64,000 nucleotides of DNA. It comes from Candidatus Aminicenantes bacterium (GTDB lineage Bacteria; Acidobacteriota; Aminicenantia; Aminicenantales; Saccharicenantaceae). Under the pieces are notes generated by a model that was given only the letters and a program-made list of their open reading frames with translations, was not told the origin of the DNA and ran no database searches. Made by a program: the position numbers and the translations under genes. Positions 9,708 through 64,000 of the stretch are shown here, piece by piece (position 1 is the first letter of the stretch; each line of letters begins with the position of its first letter). The stretch is from positions 391,854 through 455,853 of the forward strand of contig CAVWFA010000003.1 in assembly GCA_963754085.1 (NCBI GenBank), read 5' to 3'.

Positions 9708-9736
9708 GGGGACATGTACCTGAGGTACGTGTCCCC
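9708..9736 (+). repeat. 29-nt hairpin element GGGGACATGTACC-TGA-GGTACGTGTCCCC (type 1)
   Basis: 13-bp arms with one T:G pair on the + strand, 9 nt after the GNAT stop. One of four near-identical copies in the window. Confidence 0.9.
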
Positions 9737-22955: not shown

Positions 22956-22977
22956 GGGGAATTGGTATTGTGTCCCC
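22956..22977 (+). repeat. Solo arm of the 59-nt element (GGGGAATTGGTATTGTGTCCCC)
   Basis: Its last 19 nt are identical to the right arms at 48463-48481 and 49931-49949. Confidence 0.8.
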
Positions 22978-23036
22978 GGTTTAAAAACCGTATATTGAGA
23001 AAGCAGTCCCCGAAAATCCGGAATCCGGAGGGAACG

Positions 23037-45463: not shown

Positions 45464-46828
45464 TTACGGCGTCAGGGTCTCGTGGGCCATCAGGAGCTTG
45501 GCCTGGATGGGGACGCCGTAGGGGCAGGCCGCCTCGCAGGGACCCGCGCAGCCCGCGCACTCGGCCGCCCCGCGCGGGCCGAGCGCCGCGTAGAGCCCCA
45601 TGGCCTCCTTCTCCCGCCCCTTGGCCCCGAAGTAGTACTCGTAGCGCATGATCGAGTTGACGGGCACGCCCCGCGGGCAGGCCGGCTCGCACAGCCCGCA
45701 GGCGTGGCGGCAGTACGTGTCGCCGAAGGCCTCGCGGCCGTCGTCGAGCACCCGGGCCGCGGCCAGATCGAGCTTGCGGCCCGACAGCTTCAGGAACGAT
45801 TCGAGCCCCTCGAAGCTGTTGATCGTCGGGCAGACGGCGTGGACGCCGGGGTTGTTGAGGCAGAACATGATGGCCGCGTCGCGCACCTTCTCCCGGGCGT
45901 CGAGGCCGTGTTTCTTCGTGAATTCTTCGGCCACCGCGGCCCGCTCCGCCGCCCGCTGCTTCATCTTCAGCACGGCCTCGGGCAGCTCCTTGCTCTGGTT
46001 CTTGTAGCGCTCCTCGATCGAGGCCAGCACTTCCGTCTCGCTGGTCACGGTCAGGCCCGGGTCCATCTTCATCAGCGTGACGCCGACGTTCTTGGCCGCG
46101 CACGCCTTGAGGGCCTTCTCCCCCGCCTCGCGCTGCAGGAAGTTGTAGACGAAGAGCATGATGTCGAAGCGCCCGTCCTCGGCCGCGGCCAGGACGACCT
46201 GGTCCATGGGGTCGTCGAGCTTGCCGAAGAGGCTGAGGTCGGCGCCGTGGTTCGACAGCCCCGAGAACCGCACCTTCCCCTCGGCCTTGAGCTCGCCGAT
46301 GAGCTCGTGGTAGGGCTCGTACTTGACCTGGGCCAGCGTGCACATGTGGATCATCAGGCAGTCGGCCCGGTCCGTGCCCATGCGCTCGAGGCCCTTCATG
46401 AAGCGGTCCCGGAGCTCCGCCTTCGAGATATGCTTGTTGAAGCTGAGGTTGAGCTTGGTCGTGATGAACAGGGACTTGCGGTCGTGGGTCTTGAGGACCT
46501 GGCCGATCGTCCGCTCCGATCCGCCCATCCCGTAATGCTCGGCCGTGTCGATGTAGTTGACGCCGGCGTCGAGCGCCGCGCGCAGCACGTTGTCGTTGCT
46601 CAGGTCGCCGGCCCCGAAGCTGATGTCGGAGACCTTGAAGCCCGTCCGCCCGAGCGTCCTATAGTCCTTGATCTTGAAGGCCGGCTTGGCCGGCGGCGCC
46701 TCCTGAGCCGCGTCCTGGCCCGCCGCCGCGCCCTGGGCCCTCAGCCCGGCCGCCGAGACCGCGGCCAGCGATGCGCTCAAGAATCCCCGCCTCGAGATGC
46801 CTCTCCCCTTTTCCGTCGCTCTTTTCAC
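45464..46828 (-). CDS. Tat-signal aldo/keto reductase with C-terminal Cys-rich (2x CxxCxxxCP) Fe-S module
   Basis: GTG start after AAGGAG. ISRRGFLSASLAA twin-arginine signal, AKR core (NYIDTAEHYG), CGLCEPACP and CAGPCEAACP motifs. Confidence 0.8.
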   Translation of the reverse strand: MKRATEKGRGISRRGFLSASLAAVSAAGLRAQGAAAGQDAAQEAPPAKPAFKIKDYRTLGRTGFKVSDISFGAGDLSNDNVLRAALDAGVNYIDTAEHYGMGGSERTIGQVLKTHDRKSLFITTKLNLSFNKHISKAELRDRFMKGLERMGTDRADCLMIHMCTLAQVKYEPYHELIGELKAEGKVRFSGLSNHGADLSLFGKLDDPMDQVVLAAAEDGRFDIMLFVYNFLQREAGEKALKACAAKNVGVTLMKMDPGLTVTSETEVLASIEERYKNQSKELPEAVLKMKQRAAERAAVAEEFTKKHGLDAREKVRDAAIMFCLNNPGVHAVCPTINSFEGLESFLKLSGRKLDLAAARVLDDGREAFGDTYCRHACGLCEPACPRGVPVNSIMRYEYYFGAKGREKEAMGLYAALGPRGAAECAGCAGPCEAACPYGVPIQAKLLMAHETLTP

Positions 46829-46939
46829 GCGGGCTCCTTTCGTGCCGGTCGGATCGTCGCGAACATCCTATGACGGACATCCAGCAAAGTCCATGCCAGG
46901 CCTTCTCCCCGAGAGACCGGCGGCCCGGCGTAAAGGCTT

Positions 46940-46968
46940 TTGACAAGAGACGCCCCGGCTGGTAGTTT
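46940..46968 (+). promoter_or_regulatory. Candidate sigma70 promoter (TTGACA-N17-TAGTTT)
   Basis: Read directly. It favours ATG 46989 (GAGG RBS) over the TTG at 46971. Confidence 0.4.
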
Positions 46969-46988
46969 GGTTGCCCGAGGCCAGGACC

Positions 46989-47810
46989 ATGCCCCAGCAT
47001 TCGAGACTCACACCCGTCGCGGCCGCCCTTCTCTGTCTCGCCCCCCTGCTCTTCTCCGCCCGCCCCTCCTCCGGGCAAGCCTCCGCGGCCAAACCCGCCA
47101 CCGGTCCCGACGCCGCCGCCCTGGTCGAAAAGATCGGCGCGCGCATCGCCTCGTATCCCAAGCTCGAGTCCTGGCAGGCCCGGGCCCGCTCGACGTCTTC
47201 CCGGATGACGTCCGAATGGAAGCCGAAGAGCACGACGGTCACGGAGAAGCTCGTCACGGTCGACGGCGGCCTCTGGTCCGAAGAGATCCTGAGCGCCACG
47301 GAGACGGAAGACGGCCAGACCCGCGACGTCACCAAGAAGTCCCAGGAGGAGGCCCGCGAGCGCGCGGCCAAGCAGAAGCGCTCGACCGACGAGGAGCGCA
47401 AGTCCGACCAGCGCAGCCGCGGCCGCCGCAGTCTCGACATGACCCGCGACGAGGTCCTGCCCTTCGGCCCCGACAAGCGCGCGGGCTACGACTTCACGAT
47501 CGAGGGCCAGCGCGACCTCGACGGCTCGCCCGCCGTCCTCCTCCGGTCGCGCTCCCGGGTCCGCTCCGACGAGAAGTTCGAGGGCCTCTACTACGTCGAC
47601 CCGGCGACCGGCGACGTCCGCCGGGCCGAGCTGACCCTGGCCAAGATGCCCGGACCCCTCAAGCGCATGGAGATGGCGATCGATTTCCGGGTCCTGCCCG
47701 AAGGCAGCCAGGTGATGACGAAAGCCGTCATGCGCATCCACGTCGGGCTCATCGTCAAGAACATCCGGGTCGAGGCCGTCGAGAGCTACACCGACCACGT
47801 CGTCCGTTAA
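46989..47810 (+). CDS. Secreted hypothetical protein with a charged central linker
   Basis: Signal peptide LTPVAAALLCLAPLLFSA. No family confidently recognised (possibly a LolA-like fold). Confidence 0.6.
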   Translation: MPQHSRLTPVAAALLCLAPLLFSARPSSGQASAAKPATGPDAAALVEKIGARIASYPKLESWQARARSTSSRMTSEWKPKSTTVTEKLVTVDGGLWSEEILSATETEDGQTRDVTKKSQEEARERAAKQKRSTDEERKSDQRSRGRRSLDMTRDEVLPFGPDKRAGYDFTIEGQRDLDGSPAVLLRSRSRVRSDEKFEGLYYVDPATGDVRRAELTLAKMPGPLKRMEMAIDFRVLPEGSQVMTKAVMRIHVGLIVKNIRVEAVESYTDHVVR

Positions 47811-47814
47811 AATG

Positions 47815-47879
47815 GGGGACATGATACCCGTTTCCCATTTTCCGCTGGCTTAAAAAAGGGAAACGGGTATCATGTCCCC
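47815..47879. repeat. 65-nt palindromic element, perfect 22-bp arms GGGGACATGATACCCGTTTCCC / complement
   Basis: Arms at 47815-47836 and 47858-47879. Lies 4 nt after the stop at 47808-47810. Confidence 0.9.
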
Positions 47880-48004
47880 AAATATTTAACACATTAGACA
47901 GCTGCCCCACCCGTTGTTTTGTTTATAGGGGGGGGCGAGAGTTCGCCGATTAAATAAATGTATTCAGTTGCGTGTCACCGAATCGAATTGGCGGGGGCGG
48001 GAAG

Positions 48005-48367
48005 CTAGGGCAGGTAATTGGCCGAGTCGATGGCGATCGAGGAGTCGAGATAGACGGACAGGGCCCGGGCGATGGTGAAGACGATGAAGCCCATGACGAG
48101 GATGGTCAACGCGACGAGGGCGATGGCCTTGGCGTTCGAGACCTTCCGGGCCAGGCCCTGGGGCGCCAGCACGTCCCAGAGCGACTTGCCCACGAAGCCG
48201 ATCAAGAGCATCAGGCCGAAGAAGAGGCGATAGCCGTTGAGCCGGCCGTTCGCTTCGGTCGAGGCGGTGAGGCGGAAGAAGGGCGAGACGAGCCAGACGG
48301 CGAAGAGCAGGAAGAGCGCTGTGAGGACGACGGCCAGGGTCTTCTTGGGGTCGAGTTCAAGCTTCAC
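48005..48367 (-). CDS. Small 3-TM membrane protein (hypothetical)
   Basis: 120 aa with three clear hydrophobic helices and good GC3. Confidence 0.6.
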   Translation of the reverse strand: MKLELDPKKTLAVVLTALFLLFAVWLVSPFFRLTASTEANGRLNGYRLFFGLMLLIGFVGKSLWDVLAPQGLARKVSNAKAIALVALTILVMGFIVFTIARALSVYLDSSIAIDSANYLP

Positions 48368-48422
48368 CGCGTGTTCCTCCGCACTCTGTTAGACGGGCTG
48401 GGACCGGATTTCTTCCTTAAAG

Positions 48423-48481
48423 GGGGACACAATACCAATTCCCCTATTTTCAATAAATGGGTGAATTGGTATTGTGTCCCC
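48423..48481. repeat. 59-nt palindromic element (19-bp arms GGGGACACAATACCAATTC / GAATTGGTATTGTGTCCCC), copy 1
   Basis: Part of a 70-nt block (48421-48490) that is 69/70 identical to 49889-49958. Confidence 0.95.
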
Positions 48482-48484
48482 GAT

Positions 48485-49705
48485 TTAGAGCGTCCCGGCG
48501 ACGGCCTGATGGAGGACCATTTCGGATTCAGTCTTGGTCGGGTCCTTCACCAGGATGCCCCGGGACGACTGGGCGAAGCCTCCCCTGCCGATGATCGTAT
48601 CCCGCGCTTCCGTCAGCCAAGCATTGATCCCGGCGTGATCGGGCCGGTGCCTCTCGTTGTTGTCGACGGGATACAGGACGTATTTCGCCGACCAGTAGTC
48701 CAGCGCGACCGGGTCCTGGCTGGCCAGGATGGTGTTGGCCCTGGTGGTGGCCGAGGCCGGATATCCCGTCAGGGCCCCTTGCGAGACCCAGATCGCGTCC
48801 ATAATGTTGAGGACTGGAGTGTGGACGGAGACCATCATCTTGCCGCAGGTCTCGCCGAGCCCGCCGTAATGGCGGAAATCCGAATTGCCGTCGGACATCG
48901 AGACCAGGCCGTACACGTGCTTGAGGGCACCTGTGATCTCCGAGCCGCCCGTGTCGTGGTGCTTGAGGACGGGAATGTTGATGAGCTTGAGGTTCGCGCC
49001 GTGGACCGTCCCGTTCCAGACGCCCTCGCGGAGCTCGACGCGCCGGCCGCCCGCCGTCGTGAAGCAGGGGTACGAGACGTTCTCATAGGTCCGGTAGCCG
49101 TTGGCCGAGTGCTCGGACGCCCCGATGAAGTTGCCGCGCACGGGATCGAGCAGGAACGCCGAGACCCGGGAGTCGTTGAACAGGCTGTTGACGAGCCAGA
49201 GGAACGAGTGGCTCTCGTCCTGGGCGTTGGCGTGGACCCCGGTGTCGCCGCCGTAGGAGCTCGAAGTGTTGCAGGCCAGGCTGCCCCGGCCCTGGCCGTT
49301 CTCGACGATGACCACCTCGCCGCCGAAACCGTCGGGGTGTTCGAGGATCCGCTGGATGACGCCGCGGACGAGGTCGCTGTTGGTGCAGCCGCGGTATTTC
49401 CACTGGGCGTTGACCTTGATGAGCACGACGTCGGCGGCGGCGATAAGGCCGTTCGCGCCGTTCAAGGCGCCCGGTGTCGAGGTCCGATAGAACTTGAGCC
49501 CGTTCTGCCCCATGAGCGCGAGGAGCGTGTCGACACCGGAATGGCGGCTGCCCGAGACGATGGCGTTGGCCGGGATCTGGGTGACCTGGAACAGGGCGTT
49601 CCGCGTATCCGACGGCTCATCGGGGGCGTTCGAGGTCTCGCACCGGACGAGCGGCAGCGAGGCCGCGCCGACCAACCCCATCTTGACGAAATCCCTGCGC
49701 TTCAT
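48485..49705 (-). CDS. Tat-signal DUF362-domain protein
   Basis: MKRRDFVKMGLVGAASL signal. VLIKVN, PVLKHHDTGG.EITGALKH, IMDAIWV and ILASQDPVALD patterns resemble DUF362. Confidence 0.7.
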   Translation of the reverse strand: MKRRDFVKMGLVGAASLPLVRCETSNAPDEPSDTRNALFQVTQIPANAIVSGSRHSGVDTLLALMGQNGLKFYRTSTPGALNGANGLIAAADVVLIKVNAQWKYRGCTNSDLVRGVIQRILEHPDGFGGEVVIVENGQGRGSLACNTSSSYGGDTGVHANAQDESHSFLWLVNSLFNDSRVSAFLLDPVRGNFIGASEHSANGYRTYENVSYPCFTTAGGRRVELREGVWNGTVHGANLKLINIPVLKHHDTGGSEITGALKHVYGLVSMSDGNSDFRHYGGLGETCGKMMVSVHTPVLNIMDAIWVSQGALTGYPASATTRANTILASQDPVALDYWSAKYVLYPVDNNERHRPDHAGINAWLTEARDTIIGRGGFAQSSRGILVKDPTKTESEMVLHQAVAGTL

Positions 49706-49841
49706 GGCGATACCGTCCCTTCAAGAGTTTAGTCGGGCAAAGGCTATTATATCAGGCGGAAGGAAAGAGAATTTGCAATATGTTTATTTTGAATTATTTA
49801 TGAAGATTTGAAGAAAATATTATTGGGATCGTGCGCAAAAC

Positions 49842-49870
49842 GGGGACACGTACGAAGCGTACATGTCCCC
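49842..49870 (-). repeat. Type-1 hairpin element (GGGGACACGTAC-GAAGC-GTACATGTCCCC)
   Basis: Same family as 9708, 30664 and 52178. Lies 20 nt from the next element. Confidence 0.9.
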
Positions 49871-49890
49871 TGCTCACAGAGACGAAAAAG

Positions 49891-49949
49891 GGGGACACAA
49901 TACCAATTCCCCTATTTGCAATAAATGGGTGAATTGGTATTGTGTCCCC
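49891..49949. repeat. 59-nt palindromic element, copy 2
   Basis: See 48423-48481. Confidence 0.95.
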
Positions 49950-49952
49950 GAT

Positions 49953-51809
49953 TTAGAGGCCGTGGTACTTTTCGAGGATCTCGGCGTACTTGCGCTCCTC
50001 GAGCCGCAGGATCTCGGCGAAGCGGGGATCGTTCCTCAGCTTGTCGTAGAAATAGTCCCGGGTATTGTTGAGGTAGGAGAAGAAGTAGAGGTAGTCGTAA
50101 ATGTCCTCGAAACCCCGGTCGATGCCCGATTCGATCGTGGCCACCGCCTCGTCGAACATGCCCAGGGCCGCGTAGACGCGCGACCGGAAATAGGTGCCCC
50201 GCGACGGCCGGGACGCGTCGAGCGACGCCTCGATCGTGGCCAGGGCCGCCTTCCTGTCCCCGTTGGCCGCCGCGGCCAGGGCCCTCACGAGCCGGACGTA
50301 TGTGTCGCCCGGCGCCAGCGTCTCGGCCAAGGCCAGCTCGGCCGCCGCCGTGTCGTACCTCTTCATCAGGATGAGCGCCCGGGCCATGTGGCAGCGCGTC
50401 TTGACGTCGGTCGGGTCGAGCCCGATCATCTTGTCGTAGTCCGCCAGGGCCGACTCGAAGAGGCCCATCTGCTCGTAGGTATAGCCCCGCATCATGTACA
50501 TGTCCACCGTCGTGCCGCCGGCCTGGATGACCCGGGTGAAGTATTCGGCGGCCCGCTCCAGCATCCCGATGCTCCGGAGGAACCCGCCGATGTCGGTCAG
50601 GACATGGAGGCTCGACGGGTCGAGGGCCAGCGCCTTCTTGAGACAGGCGTAGGCCTGGTCGTTTTCTCGCCTGAAATAGTGGAACCAGGCCATCCCGACG
50701 TTGGTCTCGGCCCGGTCGGGGGCCATCTCGTAGGCGCGCCGGTAGTTCTCCTCCATCAGGCGCAGCGTGGCGGGGCTGTCCTCCTCGTAGACGAACCGGT
50801 ACTGGTAGGCGTCGCCCAGCCCGAGGTAGGCCAGGGGGCAGCCGGGGTCGGCCTCGCGGGCCTGGGTGAACAGGGCGATGATCTTCTCGAGCTCGGCCGG
50901 TTCGGTCGTGATCACGTACTTGCGGGCGATGGCCCGGGCCGTCTCATAGAGGCGGGTGGCCTGGACCGAGCAGAGGGCCAGGGCCTCGGGCCCGGACGAA
51001 GTCGGTACGCCGAAGGCGCGGCGGACGCCGTCGGCGATGCGGCTCTCGACGACGGGGATGTCGGCTTCCGTGCCCGGGACGTGGTCCGTCTTGAGCGGCG
51101 CGGCGCCGCGGGCCTCGCGGACCTCGTAACCGACGCGGATCTTCGAGCCGGAGCGGGCGAGGAAGCCGGCGACGAGCCAGCCCGCGCCCAGCCGGTCCGA
51201 GACGGCGGCGAGCTCGTCGGGTGTGAGCGGCGCGCCCGGCTCGAGGCCGAGCTTGCGCACGGTCTCGATCACGGCGGCGAAGGTGTAGACCTTGAGGTGC
51301 TCGGAGCTCCGCTGGAGATCCCGGATGAGGTGGTCGGGGACGGACTCGCGAAGGTAGTTGAGGCCGTCGTCGCCCGTCCCGTTGACGAAGGGCAGGACGG
51401 CGACCGCGGGGCGATCCCCGTTCGGGACGTAGTGGGGGTGGCCGTTGCTGATGACGCGCCAGCCGAGGACGCCGACGGCCATAAACGCCGTGAACCCGGC
51501 CAGAACGTACCAGCGACGGAACGAGGCGAAGGAGGTCGGGACGCGGAGGCCGAAGATCACGACGGCGTCGGGTCCGGACGCGGGGCCGGAGCCGGAGTGA
51601 GCCGGTTTCTCGGGATCGTGCTCGTGGAGCTTGGCGTCGAGCCACCAGTCGATCTCGTCTTTGTAGGCCATGACGCGGGCCTTGGGCGAGCCGTCGAGGC
51701 GGTGGACGGGGAGGCCGAGGTTCTCCTCCCAGCGGCGGCAGGTGCGGACGTCGCGGCCGAGGTAGGAGGCGATCTCCTTCCAGGACTGTAGAACTTCGCG
51801 AGCACCCAT
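49953..51809 (-). CDS. N-terminal HTH (SWKEIA.YLG...RT..RWE...GLPVH) - TM - periplasmic domain - TPR repeat protein
   Basis: 618 aa. Excisionase/MerR-like HTH, one TM segment, and multiple TPR-like repeats in the C-terminal half. Confidence 0.75.
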   Translation of the reverse strand: MGAREVLQSWKEIASYLGRDVRTCRRWEENLGLPVHRLDGSPKARVMAYKDEIDWWLDAKLHEHDPEKPAHSGSGPASGPDAVVIFGLRVPTSFASFRRWYVLAGFTAFMAVGVLGWRVISNGHPHYVPNGDRPAVAVLPFVNGTGDDGLNYLRESVPDHLIRDLQRSSEHLKVYTFAAVIETVRKLGLEPGAPLTPDELAAVSDRLGAGWLVAGFLARSGSKIRVGYEVREARGAAPLKTDHVPGTEADIPVVESRIADGVRRAFGVPTSSGPEALALCSVQATRLYETARAIARKYVITTEPAELEKIIALFTQAREADPGCPLAYLGLGDAYQYRFVYEEDSPATLRLMEENYRRAYEMAPDRAETNVGMAWFHYFRRENDQAYACLKKALALDPSSLHVLTDIGGFLRSIGMLERAAEYFTRVIQAGGTTVDMYMMRGYTYEQMGLFESALADYDKMIGLDPTDVKTRCHMARALILMKRYDTAAAELALAETLAPGDTYVRLVRALAAAANGDRKAALATIEASLDASRPSRGTYFRSRVYAALGMFDEAVATIESGIDRGFEDIYDYLYFFSYLNNTRDYFYDKLRNDPRFAEILRLEERKYAEILEKYHGL

Positions 51810-51888
51810 CGCTATATCCGTCTACGGAAATAACGCTTCTGCTAGGTATAAAGTATTCATAAGAAAAAGGATTTGTCAAGGCCCGCTT

Positions 51889-51951
51889 GGGGGTCTGACG
51901 TACTTTTCGCGTATCCCGGTTTTGAGGCAAGCGAAAAGTAGGTCTGACCCC
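51889..51951. repeat. GGTCTGAC-type palindromic element (GGGGTCTGACGTACTTTTCGC ... GCGAAAAGTAGGTCTGACCCC)
   Basis: Same outer architecture as 62301-62366, with a different inner stem. Confidence 0.85.
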
Positions 51952-52002
51952 GTCTTAGTCTTGTTCTTACCGGCTGCCCCTTTTTGAGCTAGAATACCCC
52001 AA

Positions 52003-52823
52003 ATGTCCCGCCGCCACCCGAAAGGTTATTGGTACCTGCCCGGGCTCCTCTACGATCTCGCCTTCAAGCGCATGTTCCGGGGCTTGCGGCGACGGGTCTC
52101 GCGGACGATCGAACGGGAGGGGCTCTATCCTTGGCTGGAGGTCTGCTGCGGCACGGGCGACCAGCTGCGGCACGCGCGGGGACATGTACCGAAGGTACGT
52201 GTCCCCCAAATTGGATTGGCCGAGGAGGGGTTTGCTTGGGGGACGGCGAACATGGAGCCCGGAACGGGTGTCCCCGATGAGCAAGCACAGGGGGTCGAGG
52301 CACGAGACGGCCGGGCCGTAGTTGGCCTCGACCTGAGCTTCGGCTTCGTCCGATACGCCGGGCCCGCGCGCCCCAGGTCCCGTTCATTTGCGGCGATGCG
52401 GCCCGACTCCCGTTCAAGACCGGCTCCATGCGGGCCGTCAGCGTGTCGTTCGGCCTCCACGACAAGAGCCTGGAGCTCCGGAGCGCGATCCTGGCCGAAG
52501 CGAAGCGAGTGTTGAAGCCGGGCGGGCGGCTCATCGCCGTCGATTTCGAGAACCCCTGGGACGCGGCCTCGCGCGCCGGGGCCCTGTTCACCCGGGCCAT
52601 CGAGCGGCTCGCCGGGCGGGAGCACTACGGCAACGGCCGGGATTTCCTGCGCCGCGGCGGCCTGCGGGGCTTTCTCCGGGAGAACGGTTTCGCCGAGGTT
52701 GCGCGCCGCGACGTCCCGGTCGGCTCGGTCAGTGTGGTCGTCGCGAAACTCGACTCGGATCGCCCTTGCGATTTGCCGCCCGCGGAGATTAAGATGGCGT
52801 CAAACCATTTGTTCCCGAGATAG
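52003..52823 (+). CDS. Class I SAM-dependent methyltransferase interrupted by an in-frame block of about 98 nt of palindromic-element sequence, plus one frame break near 52360
   Basis: LEVCCGTGDQL (motif I), then about 52 aa instead of the usual about 20 before VVGLDLS. FICGDAARLPF..SMRAVSVSFGLH, VLKPGGRLIAVDF. Confidence 0.65.
52178..52206 (+). repeat. Type-1 hairpin element (GGGGACATGTACC-GAA-GGTACGTGTCCCC) inside the methyltransferase ORF
   Basis: Arms identical to those of 9708-9736. Confidence 0.9.
52238..52275. repeat. Degenerate GGGGAC...GGAACGGGTGTCCCC element fragment
   Basis: The right end resembles the right arm of 47858-47879 (GGGAAACGGGTATCATGTCCCC) with an internal deletion. 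Confidence 0.5.
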
Positions 52824-52836
52824 AAACGAGGTTGAA

Positions 52837-54594
52837 ATGAGCCAAAGACCGATCATCCGCATCAGCCCTCCCGTCGGTGTCTTCCTGACCGTTCTGCTCG
52901 TTATCGCCGCGGCCTCCCCTGCCCTGCGCGCGGCCGACGAGACGACCGCGAAGGTGGACAAGATCTTCGCGTCATGGGACAAGACGACGTCGCCGGGCAT
53001 GGCCCTGGCCGTGATCAAGGACGGCAAGATCGTCTACGAGCGCGGCTACGGCATGGCCAAGCTCGAGGACGGCATCGTCAATACGCCCGATAAAGTGTTC
53101 GACATCGGCTCGGTCTCGAAGCAGTTCACCGCGGCCTGCGTGGCCATGCTCGTCCGGGACGGCAAGGTCCGGGTCGAGGACGACATCCGCAAGTACCTGC
53201 CCGAGATGCCCGCCTACGGGAAGCCGGTGACGGTCGACCACCTGCTCCATCACACCAGCGGCATCCGCGACTACAACGCCCTGCTCAGCCTGGCCGGGTT
53301 CCGGCCGGAATCGGACTCGCCCACGGTCGAGGAGGCGGTCGAGATCATCCGGCGGCAGAAGAAGCTCAACTACACGCCGGGCGACGAGTACTCCTACACC
53401 AACAGCGGCTTCTTCCTGCTCAGCCAGATCGTCGAGAGGGTCAGCGGGAAGTCGCTGAACGCCTTCGCCCAGGAGCGGATCTTCAAGCCGCTGGGCATGA
53501 CCAAGACGCTCTTCCAGGACGATCACACCCAGATCATCAGGGACCGGGCCACGGGTTACACGCAGGCCGAGTGGCGGCGGCTTCAAGATCAACATGAGCA
53601 ACTGGGACGAGACCGGCGACGGCAACGTCTACACGACCGTGCGGGACCTCTACCTCTGGGACCAGGCGTTCTACACCGGCGCGCTCGGCAAGGACCTGAC
53701 GGACATGCTCCAGACGACGGGCGTCCTCAACTCGGGCAAGGCCATCGATTACGCCTGGGGGCTCGTCGTGCGCGATTACAAGGGCCTCAAGGTGGTCGAG
53801 CACGGCGGGGCCTGGGTCGGATTCAGAGCGGCGATCGCGCGCTTCCCCGAGCAGAAGTTCTCGGTCGTCATCCTGGCCAATCTCGACTCGATCGACCCGT
53901 CGGGGCTGGCGTTCCGGGTGGCGGACGTCTATCTCGCGGAGGAGCTTAAGGGCGCGGCCAAGGCGCCGAAAGGGCGGGGCGGGCGAGTGCGGCGGCGGAC
54001 GGGGAAATGCGACGAAGGCCAAGCCCGAAGGCCGAGCCGTTCGCGGTGCCCAGGGCGGAGCTCGAGGCCCTTGTGGGGAACTGGGAGGACGTCGGGTTCG
54101 GCCAGTGGCTCGCGCTCTCGATAAAGGACGACAAGCTGACGGCGGCCCTGGGAGGCCGGAACTTCACGCTCAAGCCGATCGCGCCGGGGAAGTTCGTCGC
54201 GGCGGAGCGGGCGGACGTCGAGCTCGAGTTCAAGGCGGCCGATAAGGGCAAAGCCGCGACAGGGCGGATGACGGTCGGGAAGAGCCTGGAATTCCGGTTC
54301 GCGAAGGCGGCGCCGCTCAAGGCCATGAGCGCGGCCGAAATGGCCGGATATGCGGGGACTTATGTCAGCGAGGAACTGCTCGACGCCAAGTATGTGCTCA
54401 AGGTCGACAAGGACACGCTGGTCCTCAAGACGCGGGACGTGCCCAGGGCAGAGCTCAAGGCCATGGCCCCGGACAAGTTCACGGTCCCCGGCTACGGGCT
54501 CAACATCGAGTTCGTGCGAGGCCAGGGCGGCAAGGTGACGGGCTTCACGGTGAGCGTGGGCAGGGCGGCGGGGATCGTCTTCTCAAAGAAATGA
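52837..54594 (+). CDS. Exported serine hydrolase (beta-lactamase-like, SVSK motif) with a C-terminal beta domain; two frame breaks (about 53572 and about 53990)
   Basis: FDIGSVSKQFTA, YSYTNSGF. Continuation GGGFKINMSNWDETGDGNVYTT.. and ..PFAVPRAELEALVGNW.. run in successive frames. Confidence 0.75.
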
Positions 54595-63323: not shown

Positions 63324-63424
63324 CTGTTTTCAGGGCCAAAAACATCGATTTAAGGCCTTTATCGTGCCAATTTATCGGTCTAACTTATTGATTTCTATGT
63401 ATATTTCTGAGGTCCGACCCCATT
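63324..63424 (-). repeat. AT-rich structured intergenic element, copy Y (minus strand; starts AATGGGGTCGGACCTCAG)
   Basis: An 18-mer identical to 34107-34124, then about 70% identity over about 100 nt, including the TGTTTTTGGCC..AAAAC hairpin. Confidence 0.7.
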
Positions 63425-64000
63425 GTAAGGCGCCTTCCGGCCCTGGCAGTGCTCGCGGTCGCAGAGCTGGCAGGCGACGAATCCCTCCTCCGAGGGGAAG
63501 AGGATACCGGAGATGGACTTCCGCGGTACCATGAGCATGCTGTCGGTCAGGCGCACCCCGATGAGTTTCTCCGTATCCCCGAAGATCGAGAAGAGCTTCG
63601 GTTGCTCGGTGATGGGCCAATCCACGAGCGACCCGGGGCTCATGTTCGAGAGCGGGCCAAGGCCATAGCGCGTCTCGATGTGCTTCGCGAGCCAGTCCGC
63701 AGCCTGTTCGAGAGCGATGTTGGCGATCTCCTCGAGGTAATACTGCTTGAGGAGATCGTCCTGGGCCGCGGCCGCCCGCTCGAGCTCAGGCCCGACCGTG
63801 ATGATGTACGGAAAGACCTTGTTAGCGCCTCTCGAGATTCTTCGCGCAGGAGCGGGCTATCGAACGTGACCCCGGCCACCTCGACCGTCCCCTCCCCTTC
63901 GCCCCGACGAACGCAACGTCCCAGGCCGCGCGGGAACGGATGAGCTCCCGGGCCAGGCGTACAATCTCGTCCAGGCTCTCGAATCCGGCCCTCGCGGGTC
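63395..64000 (-). CDS. Protein resembling the methionine-synthase B12 activation domain (Met_synt_B12-like), 5' end outside window; at least 2 frame breaks (about 63830 and about 63905)
   Basis: ..SPGSLVDWPITEQPKLFSIFGD..IGVRLTDSMLMVPRKSISGILFP. Upstream segments (AGFESLDEIVRLARELI.., GTVEVAGVTFDSPLL.., NKVFPYIITVGPEL..) run in three frames. Confidence 0.6.

Follow-up and report, generated by a model that had tools for sequence, protein, structure and literature searches.

Two unrelated genes that end in the same piece of DNA raise the question of what this piece is and what it has given to the genes. The case is found in a 64,000-nucleotide stretch of a Candidatus Aminicenantes genome (contig CAVWFA010000003.1, positions 391,854 to 455,853 of the forward strand; the whole stretch is called the window hereafter), where a DUF362-family gene and a gene for a protein with TPR repeats and an annotated helix-turn-helix (HTH) part both end within near-identical 72-nt blocks. 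As argued below, the blocks are most probably copies of a non-autonomous foldback element of miniature size, each a doublet of transposase-element ends, and such copies persist at stop codons. The window genome (G000), scanned by BLAST and plain regular expressions, is a 2.96-Mb assembly with 66% G+C and 73% completeness, and the genus sample for comparison comprised 42 genomes. The blocks and the genes that end in them are the following:

48419..48490: copy 1 of the 72-nt block, with the left tag ttAAAG, a 59-nt hairpin (48423-48481) and the right tag GATTTA (on the minus strand, TAAATC), followed by GAG
49887..49958: copy 2 of the 72-nt block, with a 59-nt hairpin (49891-49949) and the tag GATTTA (49950-49955), then GAG
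48485..49705, minus strand: DUF362-family gene, 406 aa, ending ..AGTL*; its stop (48485-48487) overlaps the element tag; Pfam DUF362, 65 bits
49953..51809, minus strand: HTH-TPR gene, 618 aa, ending ..YHGL*; its stop (49953-49955) overlaps the element tag; TPR repeats by Pfam lie behind the N-terminal part, and the HTH label is that of the initial annotation

The near-identity of the two blocks, with a single difference in the loop, had been noticed in the initial annotation. It was confirmed and extended, since the blocks form one 72-nt direct repeat with 71/72 identical positions (99%), and the sole mismatch (T/G) lies in the loop. In both copies, 27-nt arms starting GGGGACACAATACC enclose a 5-nt loop. 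RNA folding of the 59-nt hairpins gave -42 to -45 kcal/mol (z-scores against shuffled sequences, -6.6 to -8.1), and the fold is of the REPIN type, in which inverted 27-nt arms and a 5-nt loop make one long hairpin of -42 to -51 kcal/mol. The chance expectation for a 22-nt arm within the 64-kb window was 0.00. The blocks contain, for the two minus-strand genes, the stops (TTA, 48485-48487 and 49953-49955) and the final codons (GAG, 48488-48490 and 49956-49958); on the sense strand, both genes run through CTC TAA ATC into the hairpin foot. The earlier statement that both genes end with CTC TAA inside the repeated block was thus borne out by the open reading frames and coordinates. The two copies are 1468 bp apart, the sequences between and outside them are unrelated, and no convincing target-site duplication was seen when the flanks of both copies were inspected.

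The same type of hairpin was dispersed in G000 and in its relatives. About 30 arms of the long-hairpin type, solo or paired, were spread over many contigs of G000. Long hairpins were present in 33 of the 42 genomes of the genus (exact-pattern hairpins, 1-17 per genome), and the reversed-pattern control yielded 0. Two other members were located in the window:

47815..47879: third long hairpin, of a second subfamily with GGGGACATGATACCCGTTTCCC arms, 4 nt past the TAA (47808-47810) of the plus-strand gene 46971..47810
22956..22983, minus strand: solo arm GGGGACACAATACCAATTCCCC with the tag TAAACC, of the same subfamily as the 72-nt blocks

The third hairpin had escaped the initial annotation, and it abuts a TAA likewise (cgt TAA aatg GGGGAC). 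The solo arm has a 22-nt identity to the arms of the 72-nt blocks and sits in the spacer between the end of one gene and the start of the next.

G000 carries two IS200-like Pfam Y1_Tnp genes, on contigs C23 and C16, and a search of the genus with the C23 protein revealed several paralogue classes. One class, approximately 55% identical to the C23 protein, scored 43-47 bits against Pfam Y1_Tnp and 56.6-59.5 bits against NCBIfam NF047646 (REP_Tyr_transpos), the latter below the 80-bit cut-off of that model. In 11 sister genomes, a gene of this kind is the sole gene of a 761-851-bp unit (approximately 765 bp), which is bounded by inverted repeats that correspond to the hairpin arms. The terminal repeat is 22-27 nt long. 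The left terminal repeat of G054, GGGGACACAATACCAATTCCCC, was identical to the arm of the window block at 22/22 positions, and the terminal repeats of G019, G006, G047, and G004 were identical to hairpin arms of their own genomes. Furthermore, terminal repeats and hairpin arms differed by a mean minimum Hamming distance of 1.36 within a genome and 3.32 between genomes (11 genomes; permutation p = 0.0004). Since the arms match the terminal repeats genome by genome, the long hairpins are therefore inverted doublets of element ends, and the family is tied to a specific class of tiny transposase elements.

On this basis, the element would consist of an A-rich tag (W-A-A-A/T-T-S), an arm of about 27 nt starting GGGGACAYRATAC, and a short AT-rich loop, after which arm and tag return in inverted orientation. 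The arms would be the terminal inverted repeats of the ~765-bp element, which carries a putative IS200/IS605-superfamily Y1 (HUH) transposase of the kind of the RAYTs (REP-associated tyrosine transposases, where REP stands for repetitive extragenic palindrome) or TIRYTs. The hairpin would then be a doublet of element ends resembling a REPIN or a MITE (miniature inverted-repeat transposable element), presumably spread by that transposase or a close paralogue. Copies would persist where they are harmless, pressed against the stop of the upstream gene; stop and element would share bases, and the element could replace the gene's own stop.

The behaviour of stop codons was followed at the home locus of the ~765-bp element, the 3' end of a conserved gene (..LIWR*), of which 25 copies from 24 genomes of the genus were compared, two of them from G051. 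At all 14 sites with an element, a decayed arm, or a short scar directly beside the stop, the stop was TAA. The 10 empty sites all had TGA or TAG, and neither TAA nor a TAAAT-like sequence was present at any of them. At the one further site, in G022, the stop is TAG and an element lies 21 nt away. The gene tree of the home-locus gene required at least 6 changes in occupancy and 7 in stop state, and the supported independent contrasts pointed in the same direction in 3/3 cases. The sister pair G054/G051 illustrates the change: the occupied G054 retains the old ..GGAGG TGA TGACGGG beyond the element, and the gene now ends at the TAA of the tag. At the home locus, approximately 8-9 nt of the gene end appear to be duplicated on both sides of the full-length element, as seen in a single event. 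If the sequence between these duplicates were deleted, the old stop would return, and its lock-step switching would be accounted for in this way. The genus therewith offers a natural series of occupied, scarred, and empty sites for the gain and loss of RAYT/TIRYT-type repeats.

Some details of the home locus (L191-L219) are given in addition. The ~765-bp unit lies between two convergent genes, both of which have their stops on its tags. The orientation of the transposase unit relative to its neighbours differs between species (L169 versus L170), and two genomes retain only 14-15-nt scars between two TAAs (L201, L204).

The bases next to the hairpin foot were counted over 96 hairpin sides of the genus. 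From -5 to -1, the counts were A83, A86, A72/T24, T69/A26, and G57/C28; position -6 was A43/T36, and no conservation extended past -7. The resulting consensus, W-A-A-A/T-T-S, flanks the hairpins on both sides, places TAA at -6 to -4 in 33/96 sides, and includes the TAAATC (minus strand) of the window blocks. The stop codon of both window genes therefore largely overlaps element sequence. At 40 sides, a gene reads toward the hairpin. The stop was located 0-7 nt from the foot in 23 of them (16 TAA, 5 TGA, and 2 TAG), 11-19 nt upstream of the hairpin in 7, and within the hairpin in another 7 (4 at the TGA of GGGGACATGA and 3 further in); the last 3 frames read far past the hairpin and are probably frame-call errors. 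TAA makes up 16% of the stops of G000. The tag reads (T)AAAT, which makes the abutting stop nearly always TAA; with two of its bases set by the tag, a stop codon 3 nt from the foot has no alternative to TAA. The overlap thus accounts for the enrichment of TAA, which is not an independent fact. The unusual feature is the tight distance to the stop only, which fits the survival of harmless insertions as well as a function.

Donated stops were also seen among the orthologues of the hypothetical gene in front of the third hairpin, the 3' ends of which vary widely across the genus:

46971..47810, plus strand: hypothetical gene, ending ..DHVVR*; its C-terminus has been remodelled by this hairpin family in other species of the genus
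Orthologues in G000 and G021: ..DHV(V/L)R*, TAA on the tag
Orthologue in G014: TGA 19 nt before the hairpin
Orthologues in G019 and G012: ..DF(R/K)WGT*, the frame enters the foot and stops at the TGA of GGGGACATGA
Orthologue in G018: 15 codons through the arm to a TAA in the loop
Orthologues in G011 and G055: the frame reads through an arm
Orthologues in G004 and G013: TAA on the tag after four additional residues
Orthologues in G049 and G022: no element

Since the insertion points differ, several events must have occurred at this one gene end. From these comparisons, the hairpin family inserts at or into the 3' ends of genes in this genus and, in some orthologues, evidently supplies both codons and stop. 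Insertion at or into gene ends, as first proposed for the window, is thus seen in frames that enter the hairpin and end at its TGA or a loop TAA. For the two window genes, the proposal that the element supplies the stop held in part. It is favoured by TAAATC belonging to the conserved tag and by TAA tracking occupancy at the home locus. For the HTH-TPR gene, the element-free relatives end with TGA, TAG, or TAA and the nearest relative with TGA, and donation of the TAA by the element is likely from this alignment. The TAA of the DUF362 gene may be older than the insertion, that is, a target and not a gift, or may remain from a loss, as the TAA of the G018 orthologue suggests. The variation of gene ends between species of these uncultured Acidobacteriota relatives is explained by the repeats, and annotated protein tails such as ..WGT* or ..GDTIPIPHF.. 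should be regarded as repeat-encoded.

Several points weigh against the reading as a foldback element spread by this transposase class. The matching class was not found in the G000 assembly, which is 73% complete and contains only the C23 and C16 paralogues; nevertheless, the flanking gene of the home locus is not in the assembly either, and absence of the transposase gene therefore cannot be concluded. Gene conversion is another possible source of the 71/72 identity, and transposition is proposed here from sequence comparison. Three contrasts at the home locus do not suffice for statistical significance. Hairpins lie beside gene ends no more often than expected from chance intergenic placement (40/90 sides). 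In G018, the element-free DUF362 orthologue has TAA at the same place, directly followed by the downstream flank of the window hairpin (GGAAGA..). Finally, a simple terminator scan of 47500-50300 returned 0 sites, and a T5 run follows copy 2 only (CTTTTT; copy 1 has CTTT, sense strand).

It could be speculated that the transposase family is adapted to dock on stop codons, so that its target is the end of translation units and not a sequence motif. Each tag would carry an ochre codon that faces outward, and the element would integrate precisely at the stop of the host gene and duplicate a short stretch of the gene end. Convergent neighbours would then keep their full proteins and exchange their own stops for the TAA of the element, and deletion between the duplicates would restore the old stop. 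We regard this idea as tentative and, on the whole, unlikely.

In the reverse arrangement, an element without a stop of its own would integrate beside an existing TAAA(T)-like sequence, mostly TAA stops in a genome with 66% G+C. Enzymes of the IS200/IS605 type are known to insert beside a short specific sequence, which is not duplicated. This habit, the lack of a clear target duplication around the two window copies, and the TAA of the element-free G018 orthologue, with GGAAGA.. directly after it, would be accommodated in this way. However, none of the 10 empty home-locus sites had TAA or a TAAAT-like sequence, and the old TGA is still present past the element in G054. Moreover, position -6 is A as often as T, and the element lies inside former coding sequence in some orthologues. 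Integration beside pre-existing TAA stops is thus rather improbable as a general account.

The second copy might also have arisen by recombination or gene conversion between two loci 1.47 kb apart, and direct repeats of this kind can delete or duplicate the DUF362 gene between them. The 1468-bp spacing and the 71/72 identity would suit such an origin, as would the lack of a cognate transposase in the assembly and the finding that the DUF362 gene stands between the HTH-TPR and membrane genes in only some species. However, the DNA outside and between the copies shows no relationship, members of the family are scattered over many contigs, and the closest relative has the same gene order with no element at the readable junction. 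We consider this origin of the second copy improbable.

Another explanation holds that the hairpins belong to the host as transcription terminators or RNA-stability elements, are not mobile, and owe their similarity to selection and gene conversion. The layout of an A-rich tag, a stable stem, and a U-containing tail does resemble a bidirectional terminator, T6-T8 runs follow some copies, and the same intergenic positions are occupied in several species. However, the arms are identical to transposase terminal repeats and co-vary with them genome by genome, and the terminator scan found none. Furthermore, the hairpins are present or absent between close relatives, are inserted at differing points of one gene end, and occur inside coding sequence. 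An immobile host structure is therefore highly doubtful as the origin of the family. Covariation of the stem was rejected as evidence for a selected RNA structure: it is uninformative, because both arms are copied from one terminal repeat and co-vary automatically. A known RNA family was likewise rejected, as Rfam yielded only chance-level miRNA-type matches on the hairpins in 46000-53000.

That the block was inserted into both gene ends and brought the final Leu codon together with the TAA is scarcely tenable: both copies do remain identical for 9 nt past the hairpin foot (CTC TAA ATC), but element-free orthologues have a Leu- or Ile-stop at the same position, and nothing is conserved past -7 in the 96 sides. 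Element-free DUF362 orthologues end with AGSL* in G018 (CTG TAA) and G008 (CTC TGA) and with AGTI* in G004 and G023; the G012 orthologue, which has a hairpin of a different subfamily, retains AGSL*. Other closer orthologues end with ..AAAGS* (G002) or ..AVAAA* (G001), one residue earlier or different, and the end position is not perfectly fixed. For the HTH-TPR gene, all full-length relatives have a Leu-stop, down to 32% identity, and the nearest one, in G003 (93% identical), ends with YHGL* (CTT TGA), followed by ordinary intergenic DNA with no element. The comparison of C-termini that the initial annotation had called for thus speaks against its claim that the element supplies the Leu. In alignments with these orthologues, the terminal Leu of both genes is ancestral and gene-owned, the place of the stop is ancestral as well, and the proteins are unchanged by the element.

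An extended target in which CTC is part of the element was rejected on the 96 sides. The residues before abutting TAAs in G000 are L, L, R, N, Y, and E, CTC accounts for 48% of the Leu codons, and 6.3% of the genes end in Leu. As to the survey of the copies for an in-frame flank, likewise proposed at the outset, 23 of the 40 gene-reading sides stop 0-7 nt from the foot, and the residue before the TAA is not fixed as Leu. With no conservation past -7, other residues elsewhere, and CTC at 48%, the shared CTC is therefore coincidental. The coincidence of three extra identical bases is modest, as it needs two Leu-final genes and the commonest Leu codon. Downstream of the G008 orthologue of DUF362 (L004), CTC TGA is followed by ATCCGGGAAAC...CCTTGGTATTGTTTTTTCC, with the tag ATC and the arm fragment TTGGTATTGT. 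This resembles a decayed copy of the element, and the G008 orthologue, counted as element-free, may be a former carrier.

The foldback element was then compared with known systems. Di Nocera, De Gregorio and Rocco (2013; PMC3733652) named such units TIRtrons and their enzymes TIRYTs, reported the sequence GGGGWSAS shared by TIRYT terminal repeats, and described a distinct Acidobacteria group of such transposases. Like TIRtrons, the units in the sister genomes have terminal inverted repeats on both sides of a small Y1/HUH transposase gene, the outer end fits GGGGWSAS (GGGGACAC, 8/8; GGGGACAT, 7/8), and the repeat is dispersed between genes as singles and dimers. However, Aminicenantes is a different phylogenetic group, an AT-rich W-AAAT-S tag is present on both sides, and the overlap is with TAA stops. 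In addition, the dimers here are tight foldbacks with loops from 5 nt up, and the cognate gene was not found in the G000 assembly.

The family shares with REP/REPIN-RAYT systems (Nunvar et al. 2010, PMC2817692; Bertels and Rainey 2011, PMC3116915) the inverted doublets of a short repeat that give a long hairpin, the intergenic positions near gene ends, the species-specific variants, and a cognate, mostly single-copy, vertically inherited IS200-like transposase at a conserved locus. It differs by the absence of a GTAG or CGTC tag, by a transposase below the curated 80-bit RAYT cut-off, and by a low copy number. The repeat family is thus linked to TIRYTs and RAYTs by mechanism and anatomy but is not classical REP/RAYT, since it fails on tag and cut-off. 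Termini of GTAG-tagged REPs often provide TAG stops to flanking genes (PMC3733652); here the terminus also overlaps and can provide the stop, but it is a TAA from an A-rich tag and not a TAG. Repeats that donate stops were therefore known before, whereas the AT-tagged, TAA-donating family, its link to a specific transposase class, and stop switching with occupancy are new; no new kind of biology is involved. The literature search found no paper on such repeats in Aminicenantes.

Likeness to other elements is partial. As in Rickettsia palindromic elements, an arm is translated, as 9-15 extra codons in G018, G011, and G055; however, the two window copies are untranslated, and insertion is at the very 3' end and not within domains. 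The target-site duplication of cut-and-paste MITEs has no convincing counterpart at the window copies, and at the home locus 8-9 nt are seen in a single event. Unlike intrinsic terminators, the region 47500-50300 had no G+C-rich stem-loop with a direct U-run called. Unlike the integron attC site (59-base element), the block has no GTTRRRY/RYYYAAC core, and no GTT occurs on either strand of its 72 nt.

In E. coli, many REPs are positioned within 15 nt of the upstream stop, and at this distance they reportedly stall ribosomes and reduce expression or translation (cited in PMC12306157). The hairpin here likewise follows closely after the upstream stop, and an effect is proposed by analogy only. 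By this analogy, a hairpin 3 nt past the stop may affect the termination of transcription or translation, or the stability of the mRNA 3' end.

The remaining features of the locus are listed below:

48005..48367, minus strand: small membrane-protein gene (MKLELDPKK..), downstream of copy 1; directly after the HTH-TPR gene in several relatives
49842..49870: 29-nt REP-type palindrome GGGGACACGTACGAAGCGTACATGTCCCC; the same family flanks a RAYT-like gene on contig C23

Only some species (G000, G003, G018, G012, and G019) have the DUF362 gene placed between the genes for the HTH-TPR and the small membrane protein. In other species (loci L024-L034), the membrane gene comes directly after the HTH-TPR gene, behind a TTGACG-18-TATAAT promoter, and the DUF362 gene is at another locus. 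In the window genome, the 72-nt direct repeats bracket the DUF362 gene (48485-49958) and could mediate its loss. Solo arms abut the HTH-TPR stop in G024 (L030) and G015 (L031), with TATAAT within about 10 nt, just upstream of the next gene; these arms may have been recruited into the promoter region of that gene. Empty-site or extra alleles were also sought in metagenome contigs by exact-pattern scans, and none was found.

The 29-nt palindromes, GGGGACAYGTACC-N3-GGTACRTGTCCCC, number about 70 in G000, and their foot, GGGGACAY, is common to them and the long-hairpin arms. In the window, they occur at 9708, 30664, 49842, and 52178. The RAYT-like Y1_Tnp gene C23:12661-13284 (region C23:12488-13300, L022/L161) has three GGGGACAYGTACC..GGTACRTGTCCCC palindromes of 29 nt upstream and one downstream, and this is the classical REP/RAYT (REPtron) layout. 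The second Y1_Tnp gene (C16:385950-387050, L021) has a 357-aa open frame with a long C-terminal extension and is bounded by inverted GGGGTCAAACCTCCACTTTTAC repeats, which are the terminus of a different foldback family. In relatives, hairpin clusters have spacings of about 1.7 and 3.45 kb, and the intervals are genes for peptidase-, esterase-, and sialidase-like proteins at conserved positions. Ribosomal RNA operons were considered for this spacing and rejected, since Rfam found none there and the intervals hold ordinary protein genes.

An AT-rich element near the end of the window (63407-63424) had been said to behave in the same way as the 72-nt blocks. This agrees with what was seen, although it belongs to a different repeat family, with the foot GGGGTCGGACC: the element at 63399-63430 holds CTGAGGTCCGACCCCATT, which has 8 occurrences in the genome, and a minus-strand frame, followed by eye and not among the listed open reading frames, reads through it as ..NGVGPQKYT*, with TAG just beyond.

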